A stretch of DNA of 64,000 nt, from IMG/VR virus record IMGVR_UViG_3300031949_001696; one strand, 5' to 3'. This DNA is from a virus. Its lineage: Duplodnaviria; Caudoviricetes. The stretch's first letter is position 1. Every line of letters begins with the position of its first letter. The position numbers were made by a program, and so were the translations under genes. Positions 1 to 64,000 of the stretch are shown piece by piece. The notes below the pieces were generated by a model. The model was not told the DNA's origin. It did not search any database and worked only from the letters and a program-made list of their open reading frames with translations.

Positions 1-215
1 GGATCGAGTAGGTCGGCGTGGAACCGCAGGGATGCTGCAACTGATTTTTCGACTGCCGTCGTGATGTCCTGCTGCACCTTGTCGTGTTGTGCGCAGCAGT
101 TTTCGGCGTCGACTTTGTTATCGAACGTGGCGATGTAGATCTTCTTGTTGTTCCGCTGTGCGTACGCCTGCCAAACGACACGATCCTTGCGCTTGTGGGG
201 CCTGACCATGCTCAT
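1..215 (-). CDS. 5' part of a gene with an AP2/arm-binding-like DNA-binding N-terminus (runs off the window start)
   Basis: ATG at 215 overlaps the upstream stop. MSMVRPHKRKDRVVWQAYAQRNNKKIYIATFDNKVDA resembles the AP2 pattern W-x-A...KKIYLG-x-F...EA. Not in the ORF track because it is truncated. Confidence 0.5.
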   Translation of the reverse strand, partial: MSMVRPHKRKDRVVWQAYAQRNNKKIYIATFDNKVDAENCCAQHDKVQQDITTAVEKSVAASLRFHADLLD

Positions 216-625
216 GGAGCCTTCCTCCGCGCGCGGCGCACCGCTGCGAGCATCTCGCCGCACTCCTGTGTCCATACTTTGTGGACGAGCACGTAGTGAT
301 CAGCTTTTTCGGGCCATACGAAGCCGTAACCGAAGAGATCGCGTGAGCCGAGTTCCTCGTCACAGATCCGGCAGTTCGCGCGACCCATGTAGCCCATCAG
401 CACGTCGCCACCCATCGGGTTCATGGTCGTGCGGAGCTGGAGCGCGCGTCCCAGCTCCTCGCGATCGGCCCACGGGACGTCATCGCGAATGTGGTCTTTG
501 GGTTGGCCGTGTTTGCGCCCGCCGGGAACGACATTGAGCAAGTCGAGCAGTGGCTGGAGCTCTCCGGCCAGCTCATCCCAGAACAGCAGCCTCTTGCCCG
601 CGTCGGGTCCAGGCGCGCGCATCAT
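212..625 (-). CDS. hypothetical protein, paralog of 51157-51510
   Basis: Shares MGxANCRIC...LG...DL...GFVWPEKAxHYV..H.VWT.EC with 51157-51510. Confidence 0.8.
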   Translation of the reverse strand: MMRAPGPDAGKRLLFWDELAGELQPLLDLLNVVPGGRKHGQPKDHIRDDVPWADREELGRALQLRTTMNPMGGDVLMGYMGRANCRICDEELGSRDLFGYGFVWPEKADHYVLVHKVWTQECGEMLAAVRRARRKAP

Positions 626-785
626 CGCTCTGCCTTTTCCTTCATCTGCTCGACGTGGATGACCCACGCGCGCTCGGCCTCCTCCAGGGCGAAGAGCGTG
701 TCACGCGGGTTCTTGGGATCGCGCGCGGCCACGAAGCCGTGTACGAAGCCCTCGTGTCGCAGGAGATCCTTCTGGTGGTGGTTGC

Positions 786-1031
786 TCACGGATGCACTGC
801 TTGGTGGGGCGTTTCGTTATTCGTGTCGATCTGCTCGAAGGGAACGCAGAACGCGATGTCGCCCTCGACCATCACGTCGGCGTGCCCGTATGGGGCCGAG
901 CACTCCTTGACCGTGAAGCGCCCAGAGCATTTGATGCGTAGGAGCGTGCCTCCTGGGCCATGGACCCAGATCGTGTTGCCGCCTTCGTCGAACTCTAGGC
1001 CGACGGCTTCGAACTGGACACGCGCACTCAC
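786..1031 (-). CDS. hypothetical protein
   Basis: Codon pattern and overlap coupling with neighbours. Confidence 0.6.
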   Translation of the reverse strand: MSARVQFEAVGLEFDEGGNTIWVHGPGGTLLRIKCSGRFTVKECSAPYGHADVMVEGDIAFCVPFEQIDTNNETPHQAVHP

Positions 1032-1666
1032 CGTTGCACCGCCCGTCGGATCGCAGCGAGATCAGCCTCCAGCATGCCGACACCGCGGAACGAGGCGAGC
1101 GTGAAGTTGTTCTCCTTGATCAGGTGCACGACCATCTGACCGTCGTGGTGGCAGCGCCAGATCGTGGCGAGCGCGATGCCGAAGCCGCGCATGAACGCCG
1201 CGTCTTCGGGGGAGAGCTTCTTTACCTTCGGTGCTTTCTTCGCGGTCTTCTTGTAACGTCTCCGCGGGTTCATCTCTCGCTCCAGGTCGACCAGGTGCGC
1301 GTCGATGCCGCGTGCCTTGATGTCCGCGATCGCCGCACCGATCGAGGACTTCGCGATCAGCCCATCGAAGTCTCTTCGGGTGGCGTTTAGGGAATCTTCG
1401 CGGCGGTACCGTCGCACGTGGACCTCGATTGCGCGCTGGGTATCGTCGAGCATCGCGTAGCAGTCGCTCGACCAGCCGCATGAGCAGCGCGCGCGATGGC
1501 CGCCATGCGGCATGTACGTACCGTGCTCGTGGTGGATCTCGATGACGTGCTCCGATCCCAGCGCCCCCACGCGCACGTCGCGGCGCACTGCGGTGCTCGG
1601 CGATTTGCAGGCGGGGCATTCGCTGTCGATCGGTGTGGTCATGGTTTCTCCTTCGTCATCCGTCAA
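1028..1666 (-). CDS. hypothetical protein with CxxC and CxCGW zinc-binding motifs
   Basis: ECPACK and RCSCGW motifs; coupled to neighbours; start may be 1642. Confidence 0.6.
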   Translation of the reverse strand: MTDDEGETMTTPIDSECPACKSPSTAVRRDVRVGALGSEHVIEIHHEHGTYMPHGGHRARCSCGWSSDCYAMLDDTQRAIEVHVRRYRREDSLNATRRDFDGLIAKSSIGAAIADIKARGIDAHLVDLEREMNPRRRYKKTAKKAPKVKKLSPEDAAFMRGFGIALATIWRCHHDGQMVVHLIKENNFTLASFRGVGMLEADLAAIRRAVQR

Positions 1667-2294: not shown

Positions 2295-3000
2295 GTTGCG
2301 CCTTTCGTTTCGGTGGACGGATCGGTCGTCTTCGTTGCTGCGCGCTCGGCGGCTTTCTGCCGTGACGGGTGATAGCCCGCGGCGTGGTAGCCGTAGTTCT
2401 TGCCTTTGCAGGCCCAGCCGACCCACGCGTAGCACGTGGGGCATTCGACGTCGGTGGCGTGAACGCGTGTGGTGCTCATGGGATCACGACCTCCCCGTTT
2501 TGAGCGGACGTGGACCTCGCGGGGTGAGCACGATGTGCGCGACGCTTGCTCCGTCGGCCCGCGAGACGGTTTCGGCCGCGTCCAGGACCTCGTTGAACCG
2601 ACGATCAGCCTCGGCGCGATTCTCGGGCTTCATCGCGCAGCCAAAGCAGATCAGCGCACCGTCCGGGCCGTACGGGCGCAGCTCGGTTTCCCCCCGCGGA
2701 TCCTCTCGGTCCGGCAGCTCGGGCCGACCGCACGCGCAGCAGACGCTCGCGGCACTCACTGCGGCAAGCTCCCACGGTAGCGCACGTCTGCGGGCGCGGT
2801 CGTGCCGTCCGCATAGAGGATCTCGGCCAGGACAGGGTAGTGCTCGGTGCCCGCGAAGCTCGGGATCTCGATCTTCGCGAGCGATCGGGCTTCGTCGAGC
2901 GTCACCGTCCGCGACCACACCACGCCGGTCTTGCCGCTGAGGAGCTGGAGCGTGATCGGGAACTTCTCCGGCGGGTAGTCATGTCGCGCGATCGGCTTGG

Positions 3001-3312
3001 TCACGGAACACTCCTCGCGGCGTCGACGGCGTCGAAGAGATGCGCATATAGACGCGCGCCGTCACGCATGTCGAAGCCGGGTCGGTTTGGATCGCGCACC
3101 GCGCACGCGGCTTCGTACACCGCGAGCAGCGCGGGGAGCGCGTTCACGGCGGCGACTGCCAGGCGGGAATCGTCGTCGAACTCCATGCCACCGATGTTGT
3201 ACTTCGTCGTCTGCGCGCCGATGCCTTTGCCCATGCGGTCGTCGTGAAGACACCACGGTGGCTGGTGCATCGCCTTCTCCAGTAGGGCGCGAAGTGCAGG
3301 GACGTCGATCAC
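3001..3312 (-). CDS. Ead/Ea22-like phage protein, paralog of 57009-57617
   Basis: PPW...LAVAAVNALP...AVYEAA...LFDAVDAAR shared with 57009-57617. Confidence 0.6.
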   Translation of the reverse strand: MIDVPALRALLEKAMHQPPWCLHDDRMGKGIGAQTTKYNIGGMEFDDDSRLAVAAVNALPALLAVYEAACAVRDPNRPGFDMRDGARLYAHLFDAVDAARSVP

Positions 3313-4202
3313 GAGGTCTTCCCTCGCATCATGGTGACGACGTCGACCGGGCGCACTGCGGCGCGTGGCGCTTCGCCGTCTTCCTTGAAGTAATGGTAGG
3401 GCAGCGCGTTCCATTCCATTTCCCGCACAGTGATGAGCTTGGTGTCGTCGTCACGCATGGCGTAAGCGCACATGACATCGCTGACGGGTCTGCCGTCCAC
3501 GACGTCGCGAAAGAACGCCGTGGGCATGAGGTAGCGTTTTTCCGTCGCGCGATCAGTCCAGACTTTCATGCGCAGTCGCAGAGTGCTCATCGCAACATCT
3601 CTCGCTGGTATCGTGCTCGGCTTCGTGAGGTCGCCGATGGCCACCGAGCGCATGTCATGGGGGCCTTCGTGCCCGACCGGCAGTGAGCACAACATCCAGC
3701 CGTCGGCGCTGGTGATCGGACACGCCGCGTTGGTCACGACTTTGGTCCTTCCGGCGGCATCACTCGTCGATGTGCGGTCGATCCGGGCGCGTCCGCGGGG
3801 CAGCTACAACACATGACGTAGCCAGGCGCTGGATTCGGGTGTCTCTTGCCGTAGCCGCATACCCACGTGTCGTTGCTCGCCGCGCTGTCGGTCACGAGTC
3901 GGCCTCCTTGCGATCTGCGGCTCTCAGCACGGGAGCATCGTCGCTCGCCGGTCTGACGTCGATGGAGGTACGCTCCTCCAGCTTCATCTCCAGATCTTCG
4001 ACGACCTTGCGGAGTCGCTCGCAGTCGCGCCGAGTTGCGGCGCTACAAGCGATCACGAGAGGGGCACGCGTCTGCGGAGGCAGTCCCTGATCGGTCATGT
4101 TGGCGATCACGCGCGCGTACGACACGAGGTCGACCTGCCGCTCGGCGAGGTCCTTCTGGGCTGCGGTGAGCTTCCGTTTGTGTTGGCGGTGGCGCGCGCT
4201 CA

Positions 4203-4922
4203 TCAAGTGCTCCTCGTCGAATCGCGGGACTCCGCTACTTGCGCTTCCTGCGCTTCCTCAGCATCGATTTCGGCCCAGATCGACACGAACTGCGCGCTCG
4301 TCAGGTACCGCTTTGCTTTCTGAACGAAGAGTTCTTCGCGCGCTCTCGACGACGAGTGCCGATGCTGCTGACCCTTCAGCTCTGTGAGCTTCCGCTGCAA
4401 CGCGAGGGATGTCGTTTGAAGATCGGCTAGGTGCTGCTCGCGTTGGCGATACACGGCCGGCGGCTCGTAGATGCCGCGAGTCGCCGCGTTTGCCTTCGCC
4501 CGGCCGATCTGCACCTTGAGTTGGCGGATCTCGTTGTCGACTTTGTCTTTCATCAGGACGATTTCTGATCGTTGCTTCTCGAAGGTGGTAGCGGTGGGTG
4601 CGAGGTGGATCTGGACGTGCCGCGCAGCTTCCGCCTCGCGTTGCTGCTGTGCACGCTGGGACTTGTCGTCGTTCTCGCTTTGCTTGACGTTGCGCCACCA
4701 GCGGTTGCGGTCGCCCTCCCGGGTGTCGTGCGGCACGTCGTGCTCGTCGAGCGCGTCGCTCACGGCGTCGAGGTCGAACGGCGTCGCCAGCGTGGGCAGC
4801 CACAGCGTTTGGCCATCCGGCACGTAGATCAAAATCGTCTGCGGGTGTTCGGGGAACAGCGTGATCCGCAGGGGGCGAGGATCGAACGCACACGGCATCG
4901 GCGGCTTCGTCGGCATCGTCAT
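4203..4922 (-). CDS. hypothetical coiled-coil protein
   Basis: ATG at 4922 overlaps the upstream stop; Q/E/K/R-rich C-terminal half. Confidence 0.65.
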   Translation of the reverse strand: MTMPTKPPMPCAFDPRPLRITLFPEHPQTILIYVPDGQTLWLPTLATPFDLDAVSDALDEHDVPHDTREGDRNRWWRNVKQSENDDKSQRAQQQREAEAARHVQIHLAPTATTFEKQRSEIVLMKDKVDNEIRQLKVQIGRAKANAATRGIYEPPAVYRQREQHLADLQTTSLALQRKLTELKGQQHRHSSSRAREELFVQKAKRYLTSAQFVSIWAEIDAEEAQEAQVAESRDSTRST

Positions 4923-5395
4923 CGGGGCGACCTCGTGCGCTTCGTCGGCATCAGCTTCGAGCGCTTGGGCAGCGGGATCTTGTTCGCCTTCATCATCGCG
5001 GTGAACGTCGGGAACAGCTTCGGACCTTTCTTGTCCTCGACTTCCTCGAACGTGACGGCTCCCCGCATGACGAGGATGCGCACGCCGATCGCGTCGAACC
5101 CCATCACGCGGATCCAGCCTTGACAGGGAATGTTGGACAGGACAGGTAATTTCGGCGAAGCTTGTGAAGCGATGGTTGCTCGATCGCTTGATGATCGAGA
5201 CATGTTCGTGCCGTCGTCTTTGCTGCTGCGCTGAATGTTGGCGAAGTGGCAAAGCATGCTGTGCAGACCGTCGTCCTGGCAGTTTTGCCAGACATCGACG
5301 AAATGCTGCGGGTCCCAGTAGTCGCGCGGAGCGTCGATGCGCCACGGGCAGTTCGAGCACGGCCGCCGGAGCTTCGTGGTAGCTGCCTCGGTCAC
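4919..5395 (-). CDS. DUF6283-like Cys/His phage protein with an atypical internal segment
   Basis: PCxxCPWR...MLCH...CQGW motif; a Ser-rich 35-aa stretch lies between CH and CQGW. Confidence 0.55.
   Translation of the reverse strand: MTEAATTKLRRPCSNCPWRIDAPRDYWDPQHFVDVWQNCQDDGLHSMLCHFANIQRSSKDDGTNMSRSSSDRATIASQASPKLPVLSNIPCQGWIRVMGFDAIGVRILVMRGAVTFEEVEDKKGPKLFPTFTAMMKANKIPLPKRSKLMPTKRTRSPR
5166..5201 (+). repeat. solitary CRISPR-repeat homologue, same family as the 61.6-64 kb array
   Basis: TTGCTCGATCGCTTGATGATCGAGAC matches the array repeat 3' end TTGCTCGGTTGGTTGACGACCGAGAC at 21/26 positions; the 8-bp stem and 5-nt loop are kept by compensatory changes. Confidence 0.75.
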
Positions 5396-5754
5396 GTGCC
5401 GACCTTCCGCAGCTCGGCGATGCGCGCGCTGCCCCGCTGGTCGCGACGCCCGATGAAGTCGCCTTGCAGCTTGATCGCAGTCTCCGCAATACCGCACGCC
5501 TCGTCGCGTGCCGCGGTCATCGCAGCGAGACTCTTCAGCAGTAGGTCGATCTTCGTCCAGATGTCGCCGTGCCCCGGCACCATCTGGTGGAGGTCGTCGT
5601 AGCCGCGCTGTTTCGCGTCGATGTCGCCGAGCAAAACGAGGACTGTCATCGGGCCCGCGGCGTCGGCGAAGACTTCACGCGCGTTCGAGTTGACCAGTGC
5701 CGCCGCGGCGAGCGTGCGGAGCTTCTCGATCAATGCTCGTTGTTCCGCTGTCAT
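5392..5754 (-). CDS. hypothetical protein sharing a C-terminal module with 5751-6017
   Basis: MTAARDEAC.IA...RIAELRKVG in both. Confidence 0.65.
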   Translation of the reverse strand: MTAEQRALIEKLRTLAAAALVNSNAREVFADAAGPMTVLVLLGDIDAKQRGYDDLHQMVPGHGDIWTKIDLLLKSLAAMTAARDEACGIAETAIKLQGDFIGRRDQRGSARIAELRKVGT

Positions 5755-6017
5755 GGAGCCCCCACCTTTCGCAGCTCGGCGATGCGCTTGAGCTTGTGTC
5801 CTGCGACGGCGGAGTGCGATTCGGCGATCGCTGCGATGGCACATGCCTCGTCACGCGCCGCGGTCATCTCGTCGAGCGCGCGGCGCAGCTCTCGCTCCAG
5901 CAGGTAGTTGTGGTCGAGGCTCGCGAAGTTGTGGCGACCGCCGTGGCCGGCGTAATAACGGCACTTGCGGTCGCTGATCTGGTCGTACGTCGAGCACATC
6001 TCGGGTTCAGTGGTCAC
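5751..6017 (-). CDS. hypothetical protein (C...C...GH.G.H N-terminus plus the shared C-terminal module)
   Basis: See 5392-5754. Confidence 0.6.
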   Translation of the reverse strand: MTTEPEMCSTYDQISDRKCRYYAGHGGRHNFASLDHNYLLERELRRALDEMTAARDEACAIAAIAESHSAVAGHKLKRIAELRKVGAP

Positions 6018-6045
6018 AAAAACCTCCGATCGGTAAGATGTGGGC

Positions 6046-6666
6046 ATGGGCAAGACCGCCGCGCAGCTCGACCGGGAGATCGCAAAAGCGTTGGCGCGGC
6101 CGAAGTCTCTTCGGGTGGCGTTCAGGAAGTCGCGCAGGGGGCACGCCACCGTAGCGTGGGAACCGCGGGACGAGTCTGGTGACGCGTGGGATGTCGCGAG
6201 AGACGCGATCCTGGAGCACGACACCAAGCGCGCAGCCGACATCTGGCGGAGTATCCGTAAGGAGTACGGCGTGGAAGCAACTCGTCCGCCTTCGTTCGAT
6301 AAGGCGTTGGCCGAAGTACCGGCCGACGTACGGCAGAGATTCGAAGACGCGATCGGTGTGCAAACGGCAGCCAAGCACGTCAAAGCGATTCTCGACGCGA
6401 TTTACCGGTCGAAAGATCCTGATGCGCTGCTCACCGCGGTGAGTGCGGCCACCAAGCACGTGACCGCGATGAAGCGCGTCGCGCGAAAATTTGGAGGCGT
6501 CAGCCGACTGCTTGATTCGAGCGGCGCGTTCGATCCCCAGATGAGCGATCTGAACAACATGCTTGTCGGCGCCAAGGAAATGGTGCGGAGGATCAAGATT
6601 CAGCGCAAGACGGGGCGCTTGCCGAAGGCGACGAGCAGGACCGCTTGGCGTACGCGCGGAATGTGA
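6046..6666 (+). CDS. basic hypothetical protein, counter-oriented, apparently leaderless
   Basis: 207-codon ORF MGKTAAQLDREIAKAL...; TAAGAT at 6034-6039, then 6 nt, then ATG. Confidence 0.75.
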   Translation: MGKTAAQLDREIAKALARPKSLRVAFRKSRRGHATVAWEPRDESGDAWDVARDAILEHDTKRAADIWRSIRKEYGVEATRPPSFDKALAEVPADVRQRFEDAIGVQTAAKHVKAILDAIYRSKDPDALLTAVSAATKHVTAMKRVARKFGGVSRLLDSSGAFDPQMSDLNNMLVGAKEMVRRIKIQRKTGRLPKATSRTAWRTRGM

Positions 6667-16895: not shown

Positions 16896-16931
16896 ATCGT
16901 GCTCGCTTTTCGCGGGTACGTGGATTGAAAC
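16896..16931 (+). repeat. solitary type I-C-like CRISPR repeat
   Basis: ATCGTGCTCGCTTTTCGCGGGTACGTGGATTGAAAC: 9-bp hairpin followed by the I-C tail TGGATTGAAAC; intergenic. Confidence 0.8.
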
Positions 16932-18356: not shown

Positions 18357-20742
18357 AGCAGACGCTGTGGCTCCCCGAGTGCAATCACTGCGGACGGCCG
18401 AAGGCGCCGCGCGGTCACGTTCCAGTCAAGGACTCCGAGGCCAAGGACTACTGCGCGCGCAGCTGTCTCGGGTACGAGGAGTGGCCTCATCCCAGCGAGC
18501 TGCGTGAGTGGCACGCTGCTAAGAAGCCGGATGCCGATGACGAGAGACCGTCTCTCCATCAGGCACGGCTCGGGCCGTGGGCACCCGAGGAGTTGAAGGT
18601 GCAGCTCGCCGCTATCGTCGACAGGCTCAAGGATAAGCGCTCCGTCTCGCCGCTCGATGTCATGCTCGAGCTGCTCAGCGGCGAGCTAGACGCTTTCGTC
18701 CTGTTCGCTCGGATGGGTCATCTCGATCCGCCGCGCGAGGACGGCAAGATCCCGATCGGAATCCTTCAGCGCAGGAGCGAAGATCCGGAGATCGACGCGC
18801 GGATCCGCGACACCGCGAAGACGTGGGCGGCGAAGCAGGAGAGTCGGTCGTGAGCACCTCTGCTCTTCGCACGTGTCCTGACTGTGGTCGGAGGTTCGCG
18901 ATGCTCTACATCTGCGAGCGTTGCGGTCGCTGCGACGAGCGAGATCTGCCGCGTGACGCCGACGCCGATCGTGCGGGATCATGCTGCAACGGCACGTGTG
19001 CCGCGCGCGACTGGCGTGCCGACGCGAATGCCGTCGCTCCACACATCACCGAGCAGCTGTGGATTCCCGACGTCCGCGAGGACGGCATTTACCTGATCGG
19101 CGCCGACGATCGCAGCGTCGTTCTGAAGATGGGCCGTCCCGATCGTGACAGCGATCTCCTCACGGCCGGCTACATCGCGGGACTCCAGGTGCGGCGACGG
19201 AAGGAAATGCCGTGAGCCTTCCGCCGCCGAAGTGCAAACAGCCCGACGCAATACTTCCGTCGCTCCCCTGCGATCGTCCGCCGCCTTGCGAGATTCACAA
19301 CAAGGAAGAAGCGGCGGCTGCGGCAGTCCGCAACGAGACCAATGATCTTCTCCAAAAGATCGTAGCGCGGCTCGACGAGCTGGTGCAGCTCCAGCGCAGC
19401 GCGATTCAACCAAAACCCCAACGACGAAAGAAGGCTGTGCGTGCTGCCTGAAGATCGCGTCCACGAGGCTGTGGCGAGTGCAGAGCCGGCGACTTTCCCC
19501 ACGTTCAATCGAGAGGCGCTCGCCGCGTTGCAAACGCGTGAGGTGCCGCGCGTGCGCGCGGCCGACTACTTCGATAAGAAGCCCGACGAGTCGCGCACTT
19601 CCGAAGAAGAGGCCGCGGCCGAACAGGAGATGGCTCGCTGGGACGCGTACCTGGCGAGGTTCGCCAAGCTCACCGACGCGCGGTGCCTGTGTTGCGGCAG
19701 CTCTCTGCGCTGTCCGCTCGGGCTGGGACTCATGGGCGGCTTCGAGTGGGGCCTCACGCACGGCGAGGGGCACTGCGCGAATTGCGGCTATCCGATGCGC
19801 GCGCATCACCGCGTGGAGGGCCTCGGCAAGATCCACAACCTGTTTCTGCCCTACCACCCGAGCGAGCTGTCGTTCGAGCCCAAAGAAGATCTGCGATGAC
19901 GGCGAAGTTCCACCCACTCACCGACGACGCGCTCGCCGGCCTCAGAGGCAGCGAGGTTCTGCTTGCAAACTATTACCGCGAGCTGCGCGAGCGCTATGTC
20001 GCCGAGATCGAAGAGCGGACCAAGCGAGATCGATCGGCGATCCTGCGCATGGCCGGCAACATCGCCGGGGGGTTCTGCGCGGATCCCGAGTTCGAGGCCG
20101 AGACATGGGAAGACATCGCCGTGAAAGCCGTGGCCATCGCGCGAGCGATCGTGGTCGAGGTGGATCGATGACTCTCAAATGCCCCAGGTGCGGTAGGGAG
20201 CTGGAGGTCGTGCGAAGTACGGCGGTGATCCCGCCCCACACCAAACCTCCGCGCTCCGGGTTCTTGGACAACGGGGCGATGGAGATCGACGGAGAGATCA
20301 TCGTGGTTACGCTCTACAAGACATGCCGGCTGAGCGGCGCTGAGTTCAGGAGGGTGCCGTGAAGAAGCTACCGAAGACGTTTCGAGGCGCCGTCGTCGCG
20401 CGCGGCCTGGGCATGAAGTCAGCACAGCTCGACACCCTGATCGAGAAGAAGGCGCTCGATCAGTTCGACGCGACCAAGGACACCTACCTCGTGGTCGAAG
20501 ACAAGGCGCTGGAGGACGACTTCGGTGTCGTGGTTCGCTGCTTCATGAGCGAGGCCGAGGCGCTTCGCTACGCGCGCGCGATGGCGTGCGGCAACGTCGA
20601 CCACCGTGTGCTTCGAGTCATCGCGCAGACGCTCGTACTACTGCGGCAAGATCGCCGGCTGGGTGGCGACCGATGGAAGTAGTCTCGCGGCGGTGTGCGA
20701 GAGACATGGCGAGCAGTTCCACATCAAGAGAGAGGCGTGATC

Positions 20743-21513
20743 ATGACCAAGGAGCAGAAGCCCAAGAAGTCCGTGCGCGAGTACCTCGAAGGGCTCGTCT
20801 GGGATAAGAAGCCGCGCCTCGAGCGTTGGCTGATCGACTACGCGGGGGCCTCCGACACGCCGCGTGTCCGTGCGATCTCTCGTGCCGTGCTGATCGGAGC
20901 GGTCCGTCGAGTGCGGCATCCGGGCTGTAAGATCGACGAGATGTTGATCCTGGAGGGTCCGCAGGGCGGCGGGAAGTCGGCAGCGCTCCGCGTGATGGCC
21001 ATCGACGACGACTGGTTCACCGACGACTTCCCCGTCGACGTGGACTCCGGGAAGCTCGTCGAGGTGACCGCGGGCAAGTGGATCGTCGAGTTGTCCGAGC
21101 TGAAGGGCATGAGCGCAGGTGACGTCGCCGCGCTCAAGGCGCAGCTGTCGACGCAGCAGGACACCGCCCGGCGTCAGCCGTACGCGCGGGCGGGCGAGAC
21201 CGTCCCACGCCAGTTCGTGATCGTCGGGACGACCGCCGCGACGGAGTACCTTCGTGACACGGGCAACCGGCGGTTCTGGCCGATCCGCGTCGAGCGCTTC
21301 GACCTCGATCGCCTTCGGATCGATCGCGACCAGATCTGGGCCGAGGCCGTGGTCGCCGAGGCCGCGGGCGAGCCGATGCGCATCGACGCGCGCACCGAGC
21401 TCGTGCTGGCGGCGCGTGAACAGCTCGCGCGCACCGATCCGACGGACGGCCATCTCCACGCGAATTATCTCGCGCAGATGATCCTCCTGTTCTTAGGGGA
21501 GACGACGACGTGA
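20743..21513 (+). CDS. VapE/VirE-family P-loop ATPase domain protein
   Basis: LILEGPQGGGKS Walker A, WFTD, WIVELSEL, R.PY.R, PRQFVIVGTT, YLRDTGNRRFWP. Confidence 0.9.
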   Translation: MTKEQKPKKSVREYLEGLVWDKKPRLERWLIDYAGASDTPRVRAISRAVLIGAVRRVRHPGCKIDEMLILEGPQGGGKSAALRVMAIDDDWFTDDFPVDVDSGKLVEVTAGKWIVELSELKGMSAGDVAALKAQLSTQQDTARRQPYARAGETVPRQFVIVGTTAATEYLRDTGNRRFWPIRVERFDLDRLRIDRDQIWAEAVVAEAAGEPMRIDARTELVLAAREQLARTDPTDGHLHANYLAQMILLFLGETTT

Positions 21514-60859: not shown

Positions 60860-61579
60860 AGGAGAGCTGCGACTGTCCCCACTGCGGAGAGCCGTGCGAT
60901 CGCGAGGAGGTCGACGTCGGTGTTGGCGTGATCCACGGCCCGTGGGGCTGTGCGGGTTGCGGATGGTCGAGCGACGAGGTGTATGACTGTCGTGACGGCG
61001 TCCGCCGCGACGGTGATGACCGAGTGTTCGATCAGTACGGGGTCTCCCACCACATCGACCGGATCGGCGGCAAGGCAGTGCTCGCCGGAATCAACGTCAA
61101 CGACCGCGGAGTAGGTCGAGAAAAGGACACGCCATGATGGACATGATGGTCGCGGTGCTGGGAATCCTGCTGTTCTTATCGTTCGTGTGGGCGCTGAGCG
61201 AACGCGCCCGCTGTCAACTGCTCGCCGAGGATCGAGACTTTTGGCATCGGCTCTATCGTGACACTGACGAGCAGAAGCGCCGCCTGTTCGAGCGCATGCT
61301 GGAGGTCGATCACGACTGCCCAAGAGCGACGCGGTCGTGACCGACGCCGAGTGGGAAGCGCGGCGCAAGCGCGCGATCTTTGCCGCGTTCCAGACGGGCC
61401 GACCGGTGTTCGCCGATTCCGACGGGGAGATGCGCTTCGCCGATGGGGATCACGAGCGGCTTGCCGAAGGCGCCGGCATGCCCAAGACTGCCGTCCCTCA
61501 GCAGGCGACAGTTTCGTCCACCTGGCGGTCGCGGGTGAAAAGCTGGTTCGGAGGTAGGTCGTGAAACCAGCATCGTACG

Positions 61580-64000
61580 ATTTCGGTCGTTAGCAGGCAT
61601 GTTCACGTTTTTTGCCGACGTGTCGATCCCAGCCCACGTCTCCGTCTCGGCCGTCAACCAAACCGAGCAAGTAGTCTCGGCCGTCAACCAACCGAGCAAG
61701 CACGATCACACGCCGACGAAACGCAACAACGGCGACGTGAGGCAGTCTCGGCCGTCAACCGACCGAGCAAGTACGATCACGTAGGCTGTCGGCGTGTCGG
61801 CGTGCAGCTCGGCGAGCTGCAACCGTCTCGGTCGTCAACCAACCGAGCAAGCACGATCACCTCAACCACGATCGCGTCAGCCGCGACGCGACGACGCGAC
61901 GCTAGTCTCGGTCGGTCGTCAACCAACCGAGCAAGTATCACCCGCCAAGGATCTGGCTGACCTCGCGCTCTGTTGGGAGTCTCGGTCGTCAACCAACCGA
62001 GCAAGCACGATCACTTTTCACTTTGGTCCTTGATCAATCACGAAGCTCTTTGTCAGAGTCTCGGTCGTCAACCAACCGAGCAAGCACGATCACACCAGGC
62101 TCCAGGCTCGGTGATCAACCTCAGCGAGCGCTCCACGTCTCGGTTGTCAACCAACCGAGCAAGTACGATCACAAGGGGCATGCGCCGCTCTCGCTCGAGC
62201 TGCTCAAGGTCTCGGTCGTCAACCAACCGAGCAAGTACGATCACAAGGGGCATGCGCCGCTCTCGCTCGAGCTGCTCAAGGTCTCGGTCGTCAACCAACC
62301 GAGCAAGTACGATCACCGTCTACCCTCGGTGCGTTGCTGCGCGACTTGCCGGTCTCGGTCGTCAACCAACCGAGCAAGTACGATCACATGACGTAACTGT
62401 GGACCCAACAACCTAGTCCGGGTCTCGGCCGTCAACCAACCGAGCAAGTACGATCACATCGCTCGTCGGGTGCTAACCTCCTAGCAAAGGGGAGTCTCGG
62501 TCGTCAACCAACCGAGCAAGTACGATCACACGATCCTCAAGGGCGACAACCGCGCCATGACGAAGTCTCGGTCGTCAACCAACCGAGCAAGTACGATCAC
62601 AGACCGAGGCTTCGTTGCAATTGCGGCGTGACCTCCGGTCTCGGTCGTCAAGTACGATCACCCATGTACCGCCCGCACGAGCACGGTGACGGCGAGGAGT
62701 TTTTCCACGTCTCGGTCGTCAACCAACCGAGCAAGTACGATCACGTTCCGTACGCGCTCTTGCGGTCAGCGGTGTCACTGTCTCGGTCGTCAACCAACCG
62801 AGCAAGTACGATCACGAGACCACTGCGTTTCCGCTCGTCGAGGATGCTTTCGTCTCGGTTGTCAACCAACCGAGCAAGTACGATCACTTTTGGTTTCCTC
62901 GTCACAGACTGCGTAGACACTGTCTCGGTCGTCAACCAACCGAGCAAGTACGATCACGCGCAGCGGTGGGGCGGGAAGCTGCCGTACGACGAGTCTCGGT
63001 CGTCAACCAACCGAGCAAGTACGATTACATGGGGCATGCGCCGCTCACAGCTGCGCGCGCTCGTCGAAGCGAAGAACTACGCCCTGTCTCGGTCGTCAAC
63101 CAACCGAGCAAGTACGATCACACAGGAGTCGGCCCAGTGTAGACCCTGGCGGATGGTCGTCTCGGTCGTCAACCAACCGAGCAAGTACGATCACACGCTC
63201 GCGAGCGCGTCAATCGCCGCCGAATGCGTGCAGGGTCTCGGTCGTCAACCAACCGAGCAAGTACGATCACGTGCCGCCTGATACGGGGCCCGCTCGTCGC
63301 GCTTGTCTCGGTCGTCAACCAACCGAGCAAGTACGATCACCCAAGTCCGCCACCTCCAACTGCCGCACGAGGTCCACGTCTCGGTCGTCAACCAACCGAG
63401 CAAGTACGATCACCAGCATCGTGGGCGTCGACGGCGCGACCGCTCACTGGTCTCGGTCGTCAACCAACCGAGCAAGTACGATCACGCTGGACTTGCGCGA
63501 TCCCGCCGTTCGTGTCCGCGAGTCTCGGTCGTCAACCAACCGAGCAAGTACGATCACCTGGCGGGCAGAGACACCTCTGCCTTGGAGGTCTGGTCTCGGT
63601 CGTCAACCAACCGAGCAAGTACGATCACCGCCGATGCCAAGCGCGCGAGCGACAGAACTCGTCGTGTCTCAGTCGTCAACCAACCGAGCAAGTACGATCA
63701 CCGCGCTCTGCCTGCTGCTGCGCAAGCGAATGACTGTGTCTCGGTCGTCAACCAACCGAGCAAGTACGATCACCTGGCGTCGGTCGGTGCCGCCGCCGAG
63801 GAACCGATCGAGTCTCGGTCGTCAACCAACCGAGCAAGTACGATCACTGCGCGAATACCAAACGCGCATGCACGCCCTGTGTGTGTCTCGGTCGTCAACC
63901 AACCGAGCAAGTACGATCACGCGTCGGTGCCTCGGGCGACGATCCGCGGCTCACCTTGTCTCGGTCGTCAACCAACCGAGCAAGTACGATCACCCGGGTG
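61580..64000 (-). CRISPR. CRISPR array, repeat GTGATCGTACTTGCTCGGTTGGTTGACGACCGAGAC (36 nt), continuing past the window end
   Basis: 33 clear repeat copies from 61644 to 63993 plus a very degenerate one at 61580-61606; spacers mostly 34-47 nt; degenerate copies cluster at low coordinates (trailer end). Confidence 0.98.

Follow-up and report, generated by a model that had tools for sequence, protein, structure and literature searches.

The window analysed here, a stretch of 64,000 nt, is part of a 267,828-bp soil mobile element (ENA ERZ27256953). Most of its proteins have no Pfam or PHROG match, and the window alone does not decide between a virus and a plasmid. Megablast of 12-22 kb of it against phage and plasmid collections returned no match, and a check for stop-codon recoding gave no clear signal in the window. 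At its right-hand end lies a CRISPR array built on a 36-nt unit (GTCTCGGTCGTCAACCAACCGAGCAAGTACGATCAC on the plus strand), the first copy of which starts at 61644 and the last of which ends at 63993, 7 nt of a further spacer remaining before base 64000. The features concerned are the following.

5166..5201, plus strand: lone member of the array's repeat family, with the stem CTCGATCG/TGATCGAG (21.5 bits, E 0.0046 with the covariance model described below)
61565..61643, no strand assigned: trailer flank, between the last plus-strand gene (61337-61564) and the array
61644..64000, minus strand: CRISPR array of 33 repeat units and 31 complete spacers, continuing past the window end
61644..61673, minus strand: terminal decayed repeat of 30 nt, with a 1-nt insertion and without its 5' end (model match 9.1 bits)
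61674..62172, minus strand: oldest, trailer-proximal part of the array, with variant repeats and spacers of 43-48 nt
61905..61944, minus strand: degenerate repeat, altered by a 4-nt duplication and a short deletion (model match 14.3 bits)
62173..62280, minus strand: exact spacer duplication (62173-62208 equals 62245-62280, with a repeat between the copies)
62638..62661, minus strand: truncated repeat, with a 12-nt internal deletion that removes one hairpin strand
63029..63085, minus strand: over-long spacer of 57 nt, whose 18 terminal low-coordinate nt match the duplicated spacer at 17 positions
63958..63993, minus strand: consensus repeat, consisting of the 5' segment GTGATCGTACTTG, the hairpin CTCGGTTG/CGACCGAG with loop GTTGA, and a 3' AC beside the spacer

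Thirty of the 33 units are near-perfect and three are damaged; 21 match the consensus exactly, nine have one or two substitutions, and in five of these the difference from the consensus is a single base. A 23-nt core pattern of the repeat has 29 matches, against none expected from shuffled sequences. The complete spacers (n=31) are mostly 34-38 nt long with a mean GC content of 0.645, and the five closest to the low-coordinate end measure 43-48 nt. This end is the old (trailer) end of the array and repeat variants cluster there: a GTGC variant is found in the copies at 61674, 61825, 61979 and 62058, and no spacer separates the terminal remnant from the adjoining repeat. The decayed copies that the initial annotation had placed at a low-coordinate trailer are thus present, as the remnant at 61644, the GTGC variants, the lengthened spacers and the copy with indels at 61905-61944. 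No promoter-like site, terminator-like site or leader motif was found in the trailer flank. A related metagenome array (L026) has as its main repeat exactly the sequence of the copy at 61745, so that the array consensus itself looks derived.

Read on the minus strand, the repeat is GTGATCGTACTTG-CTCGGTTG-GTTGA-CGACCGAG-AC. The corresponding RNA forms a 3' hairpin of 8 bp at -13.2 kcal/mol, a value equalled by 3 of 200 shuffled sequences, and the plus-strand fold reaches -7.8 kcal/mol with an internal mismatch. All 72 stem cells form standard pairs on the minus strand versus 61 (84.7%) on the plus strand, where the remainder are mismatches of the A-C type. Each stem substitution listed in the initial annotation exists and stays paired on the minus strand, as had been stated: the variant GGCCG at 61644, 61674, 61745 and 62422, GGTTG at 62137 and 62852, and CTCAG at 63666, with an extra T-to-C change in the copy at 61745. 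The copy at 61644 had been listed among the substitutions; GGCCG is indeed there, together with the insertion and the loss of the 5' end noted above. The strand-informative changes inside the array amount to 4-5 independent events, with a chance probability of roughly 0.03-0.06. These events being few, the test was widened to related repeats from metagenomes.

A degenerate pattern of the 3' part of the repeat retrieved 30 loci from JGI metagenomes, about a dozen of them clear relatives and several of these arrays. Together with the window copies, 12 related metagenome loci gave a set of 41 distinct repeats, in which 97% of the stem cells are paired and compensatory changes on both sides occur at five of the eight stem pairs. 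One pair that had been left free in the search pattern is G-C in 23 repeats, A-U in 11 and G-U in 7, with no mismatch. On four of five pairing measures none of 500 shuffles reached the observed value, and on the fifth 14 of 500 did. About 34 G-U cells would become A-C on the opposite strand, compared with at most 10 unpaired cells on the crRNA strand. Consequently, since the G-U cells of the family pair only on the minus strand, this is the crRNA sense, in agreement with the initial annotation. The orientation is secure only when the family-wide and the covariance-model evidence are added to that from the array.

The covariance model, with a terminal helix of 5 bp, was constructed from 11 repeats only, namely eight experimentally used Cas12m crRNA repeats (PMC11013384 Table S5) and three that neighbour Cas12m-like genes, in Virus Rctr197k and in an IMG/VR contig. 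All eight published repeats end in GAC, with a short helix followed by AC, as in the example GCUCAG...CUGAGAC (PMC11013384 Table S5). Applied unfiltered to the whole window, the model had as its 31 best matches 30 repeats of the array and the lone repeat at 5166-5201. Intact array repeats score 16.8-21.9 bits, at least 19 in all but one (E 0.004-0.016), and the best unrelated match in the window scores 15 bits. The array was matched on the minus strand only, with model positions 1-36 falling exactly on the repeat boundaries. E-values per array repeat are about 0.004-0.07, and the near-identical copies count as one or two independent tests; these modest values gain weight because the register is exact and the strand exclusive. 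A lone type I-C-like repeat at 16896 received no model score. Rfam, including its CRISPR-DR families, contains no match for the repeat. The array repeat thus belongs to the Cas12m repeat family, which classifies it as type V, as the initial annotation had proposed.

The lone repeat at 5166-5201 sits within a gene on the opposite strand (4203-5489) and shows compensatory stem changes. No exact copy of the 36-nt repeat occurs in IMG/VR, in GTDB genomes or in JGI metagenomes, and two looser patterns had no match in IMG/VR. The 24 GTDB matches to a loose pattern were rejected as chance; they are single sites whose upstream 10 nt are unlike the 5' part of the repeat.

A search for cas genes among the window proteins found none in the window. 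The candidate effector, P0131 (766 aa), was retrieved by a homology search seeded with the protein of a related metagenome locus, L017. All 110 indexed words of P0131 recur in a stretch whose start lies 1211 nt beyond the window. Against PDB, its four matches at E<=0.001 are all Cas12m entries, among them Cas12m 23vw (E 1.7e-51) and Cas12m2 (3e-16). Its best PADLOC family, at 9e-73, is Cas12u1, the former name of Cas12m. The protein is unbroken, its zinc-ribbon cysteines are kept and the motifs AIDLSW, with the predicted RuvC aspartate D414, ILIEGG and WDQDANA correspond to a RuvC domain of the D-E-D type. Judged from its sequence, P0131 is a Cas12m (V-U1) homologue and the predicted effector of the array, encoded just past the window end. 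The 1211-nt gap fits about 16 additional repeat-spacer units plus a leader; the window would then hold the trailer-side two thirds of the array, with about 16 more units expected beyond it. The probable strand of P0131 and its distance to the first repeat rest on relatives and on one Logan contig.

Two related loci document the arrangement expected beyond base 64000. L017 contains a complete 715-aa ORF (Cas12m profile E 2e-145) whose five PDB matches at E<=0.001 are all of the Cas12m family, the Cas12m entries being matched at 6e-54 to 1e-14. Its stop codon is followed by a 65-nt leader and a repeat identical to that of the window at 32 of 36 positions. In L029, the C-terminus of a Cas12m-like protein shares 66% identity with P0131; it precedes 62 nt of leader and four repeats that belong to the same family. 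The orientation is ...GAGAC in both loci, and the leader motif TTGACAACTGAATAGT(T/A)GAC is common to the two. When the related loci were searched with a Cas12m profile, matches were obtained in L017, L028 and L029. The gene-then-array, co-directional layout is also found in M. silvanus pMESIL02, Virus Rctr197k and an IMG/VR contig (L005). In a soil sequencing run, a 15-kb contig breaks within the array, and a short Logan contig joins the GATCAC side of the repeat to the leader motif TGACAACTGAATAGTTGA of L017 and L029, present in reverse complement. This is the side predicted to carry the leader if transcription enters the minus strand from beyond 64000.

Both the leader and the RuvC/TnpB-derived effector that the initial annotation had located past the window end are therefore matched by concrete sequences, and its wording 'Cas12j/Cas12m-like' can be narrowed to Cas12m, no Cas12j entry being among the PDB matches of P0131 at the above threshold. 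The same annotation had imagined a compact, uncharacterised Cas12. Compact does not apply to a protein about 150 aa longer than the characterised Cas12m, and uncharacterised was overstated for a family that has been characterised, although it does describe the clade of P0131 itself.

A variant 92% identical to P0131 (P0243) is present on a 7.2-kb contig of the same ENA sample, with an RNA ligase gene and a 54-aa gene as neighbours. The latter is divergent from the effector gene at a distance of 41 bp, and the contig ends about 330 nt past the effector stop. The clade that comprises P0131 and the L017 effector (630-820 aa) is widespread in soil metagenomes, on contigs of up to 461 kb, many members lying on contigs of 180-460 kb. 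It was not recovered by a search seeded with distant Cas12m proteins, and in an exhaustive profile search it is absent among the best 150 of 3,506 strong matches.

Building on the array, its strand, its hairpin, its membership of the Cas12m repeat family and the identity of the neighbouring protein, all of which are directly established, we estimate at about 85% the probability that this is a type V-M (Cas12m, formerly V-U1) array, transcribed from the minus strand with its leader beyond 64000, that guides P0131. The array would be transcribed from right to left, from a short leader situated immediately downstream of the effector gene. Cas12m works without a tracrRNA and processes its own pre-crRNA by a cut within the repeat (PMC11013384, PMC10442227); by analogy, the pre-crRNA would be cut inside the repeats, upstream of the hairpin, and likewise without a tracrRNA. 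Each crRNA would then consist of a 5' repeat handle ending in the 8-bp hairpin and AC, followed by the spacer. Loaded with such guides, P0131 would be expected to bind matching double-stranded DNA adjacent to a PAM.

All eight Cas12m variants tested bind PAM-flanked DNA without cutting it, thereby blocking transcription, and four of them have D-E-D (PMC11013384). By analogy P0131 would probably also bind DNA without cutting, and the most likely outcome would be a block on transcription or replication of the target, as in characterised Cas12m; with its D-E-D triad intact, cleavage by P0131 is possible. Competition with other mobile elements has been proposed for plasmid V-M systems and for phage-borne CRISPR (for the latter, PMC7162821), and such competition, or superinfection exclusion, would be the likely use of the present system.

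The spacers yielded no target in phage and plasmid collections, in the window, in the related loci or in a seed search of IMG/VR, in which two 20-nt spacer seeds were absent; no PAM could be derived for this reason. Phage and plasmid matches at E 0.06-0.7, including one to Gordonia phage Easley, were rejected as chance since they straddle repeat-spacer junctions or sit in the repeat. There is no self-target in the window, where the best gapped match, that of the spacer at 62173 to 18647-18677, is reached by 4 of 100 shuffles, and no cross-targeting was detected between the array and the related loci. No RNA run is listed among the public sequencing runs carrying the sequence.

This absence of targets could be taken to mean that the array, although of Cas12m origin, is a silent or decaying relic and that whatever Cas12m activity the element has rests on its other array or on lone repeats. 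The damage in the middle of the array (the truncated repeat at 62638, the duplicated spacer and the 57-nt spacer) and the fact that V-M loci are devoid of adaptation genes (10.64898/2026.09.14.751636) point in the same direction. However, 21 of the 33 copies still equal the consensus and five more are one base off, decay is confined to the distal end, as is usual in arrays that stay in use, the hairpin is maintained by compensatory change across the repeat family, and P0131 is unbroken over its 766 aa, with RuvC motifs and zinc-ribbon cysteines intact. We therefore consider a relic improbable.

It is less probable still, to the point of being a minor concern, that the array serves another type V effector such as Cas12j (Cas-phi), its resemblance to Cas12m reflecting a shared habit of 3' hairpin and GAC. 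Huge phages are the home of Cas12j (PMC7162821), an effector of about 770 aa falls within the Cas12j size range, and an 8-bp hairpin without a pseudoknot is unlike the solved Cas12m handles. P0131 nevertheless points to Cas12m, by its PDB matches as well as by the PADLOC family that fits it best, and genes of the Cas12m type lie directly upstream of the same repeat family in L017 and L029. Finally, a class 1 (type I) array, or a plus-strand reading in which the minus-strand hairpin is incidental, hardly deserves credence: many type I repeats have a hairpin near one end and the element does carry the type I-C-like repeat, but plus-strand pairing is poorer in the array and across the family, the Cas12m model matches the array on the minus strand only, Rfam holds no CRISPR-DR match, no class 1 gene was found among the window proteins scanned, the related loci (scanned with the Cas12m profile only) contain Cas12m-like genes, and the leader motif adjoins the repeat on the side where minus-strand transcription would place it.

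A type V-M array guiding P0131 agrees in several respects with the characterised V-M systems MmCas12m2, GoCas12m and MsCas12m (PMC10442227, PMC11013384). These share with the window array a 36-nt repeat of the form ...G-CUC..-loop-..GAG-AC and spacers of 34-38 nt. Their array directly follows a single effector gene and runs in the same direction, as in L017 and L029, and they use no tracrRNA; in the 61.6 kb searched here (window positions 1-61600) there is no anti-repeat longer than 11 nt. P0131 is moreover homologous to the solved Cas12m structures.

The differences concern the crRNA handle, the effector and the carrier. The terminal helix of the window repeat has 8 bp and a 5-nt loop, whereas characterised Cas12m have 5-6 bp and a loop of 8-11 nt. 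In the solved Cas12m crRNAs, the loop of the terminal helix is paired with a GCC-type segment from further upstream, and the resulting pseudoknot stacks on the helix (PMC10442227, PMC11013384). In contrast, inspection by eye revealed no upstream complement to the invariant GTTGA loop of the window repeat, which instead has eight nested covarying pairs. The longer helix may take the place of the coaxially stacked stem, and the handle of the window crRNA may be bound differently from the solved ones. The additional length of P0131 is accompanied by insertions and by motifs of the D-E-D type. Its array, with 33 units and the further units expected beyond the window, is long in comparison with those of characterised V-M systems; it is carried by a soil element of 268 kb, the latter by plasmids or chromosomes.

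Closer parallels in terms of carrier are provided by Virus Rctr197k (KX853510) and the myxophage MV-1 (10.64898/2026.09.14.751636), large phage genomes in which a Cas12m-like gene has its array immediately behind it. Their repeats end in CUGAGAC, like those of the window system, but their effectors are of ordinary size (610-622 aa, against 766 aa for P0131). The Rctr197k repeat has a 6-bp stem and a 9-nt loop that varies between copies, unlike the invariant loop of the window repeat, and the MV-1 array contains only eight spacers. The Rctr197k gene is 31% identical to MsCas12m over 98% of its length, and it is not among the relatives of the L017 effector down to E 1e-10.

For huge phages, type V-U systems have been on record since 2020 (Al-Shayeb et al. 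2020, PMC7162821). Like the window system, these V-U and Cas12j systems pair a class 2 type V effector with an array in a viral genome of very large size; acquisition genes are not expected and use against competitors is presumed. The present system differs from the huge-phage Cas12j systems in its Cas12m-like effector and its soil habitat. V-M has been described as a type enriched on plasmids that also occurs in some prophages. The window array is consequently a further example of a known system, huge-phage V-U and plasmid or prophage V-M having already been published. Within that known kind, its crRNA handle is possibly simplified and its effector enlarged. Virus-borne Cas12m is barely documented, the cases found being a 2026 preprint that claims the first phage Cas12m (10.64898/2026.09.14.751636) and GenBank Virus Rctr197k, which carries its Cas12m-like gene unannotated.

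The results settle how a long CRISPR array on a very large soil mobile element is read and to which family it belongs, and tie it to a concrete effector sequence that is open to expression and testing. A simpler hairpin handle together with a larger effector of the D-E-D type would offer a natural contrast to the compact, non-cutting Cas12m employed in base editing. The spacers, once matched to their targets, would reveal the opponents of large soil elements. A broader scenario, which we advance as speculative and regard as somewhat unlikely, is that of a virus-specific clade of enlarged (630-820 aa) D-E-D-type Cas12m on 180-460-kb soil contigs. In this clade the plain 8-bp hairpin would replace the pseudoknotted handle, long arrays without adaptation genes of their own would presumably borrow the Cas1-Cas2 of the host, and single repeats would be re-used as regulatory or guide elements inside the viruses' own genes, including the effector gene. 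If this were true, the enlarged Cas12m clade would serve huge soil viruses as a self-contained weapon and regulator, and not as a silencer of the plasmid type.

Repeats and repeat-like sequences of the window's CRISPR family, a 36-nt Cas12m-type repeat, also occur within coding sequences. They were scored with a covariance model built from 11 Cas12m-associated repeats (the Cas12m repeat model) in L017, a related JGI metagenome locus encoding a complete 715-aa Cas12m-like effector; L028 is another such locus.

L017:2731-2766, plus strand: repeat-like sequence (25.6 bits, Cas12m repeat model), sense, within the cas12m CDS.
L017:1822-1857, plus strand: repeat-like sequence (21.1 bits, same model), sense, within the cas12m CDS.
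L028, within 1-1617, minus strand: N-terminus of a Cas12m-like gene, with a family repeat antisense inside this coding region.
Window 5166-5201, plus strand: lone repeat of the same family as the window array, antisense within gene 4203-5489.

Read by eye in the cas12m frame, the repeat at L017:2731-2766 yields the peptide NAKLARSVDDRD, directly after the RuvC-II Glu. The same peptide is present in P0243, a 92%-identical variant of P0131 (the 766-aa Cas12m-like effector encoded beyond the window end), and P0131 itself has a Gly-rich segment at this position. The effector gene seems to have incorporated a CRISPR repeat into its coding sequence. The L028 N-terminus adjoins genes homologous, at 70-73% nucleotide identity, to those located at 58.9-59.45 kb of the window. 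The lone repeat of the window displays compensatory stem changes, CTCGATCG/TGATCGAG.

Further copies lie upstream of cas12m in L017, and a conserved motif precedes the arrays, including that of L029, another related locus.

L017:700-1050 region, minus strand: small gene divergent from cas12m, with repeat copies beyond its end.
L017:3270-3299; L029:778-807; soil sequencing run X1, loose end at window 62321: conserved leader motif TTGACAACTGAATAGT(T/A)GAC.

The small gene looks like an RHH gene. Just beyond its end, placed by eye, the L017 minus strand carries a 24-nt copy of the window repeat hairpin, followed after about 95 nt by a full repeat identical to the window consensus at 34/36 positions; the two copies may form a mini-array, or else act as a cr-like regulatory unit. 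The leader motif is located 5-6 nt ahead of the first repeat and contains two GTTGAC/TTGACA half-sites; it is a candidate promoter -35 box or regulator binding site.

Within the window array, the two distinct spacers at 62173-62208 and 63029-63085 have 17/18 nt in common at their low-coordinate ends (A[A/T]GGGGCATGCGCCGCTC, PAM-distal in crRNA sense), and may derive from homologous targets. Two other window features concern the array flank and a primase-like gene.

Window 61134-61643, plus strand: operon toward the array, ending at 61564, head-on to the minus-strand array.
Window 20344-21513, plus strand: 107-aa ORF, then a VapE-like primase/helicase ORF of 272 aa (matching Pfam PF05272 at E 6e-63).

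Since no terminator-like site was found between the operon end and the array, antisense read-through of operon transcription into the array is possible. The 107-aa ORF lies directly ahead of the VapE-like ORF and in frame with it, the two being divided by a single TAG stop only; read-through of this TAG would give one 389-aa frame.

An intact member of the effector family resides in a 197-kb phage record.

Virus Rctr197k (KX853510), 2968-6384: intact Cas12m-like gene, 622 aa, then a CRISPR array.

The sole annotation of this gene is 'similar to transposase', and the stem of its repeat is constant while the loop differs from copy to copy. By protein homology search, many contigs of 180-461 kb carry a member of the enlarged clade to which P0131 belongs, and two members sit on contigs of identical length, 410,486 bp. 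A protein profile search recovered 3,506 representatives of the Cas12m-like family at 50% identity with E<1e-30; the family is far bigger than the 134 published variants.
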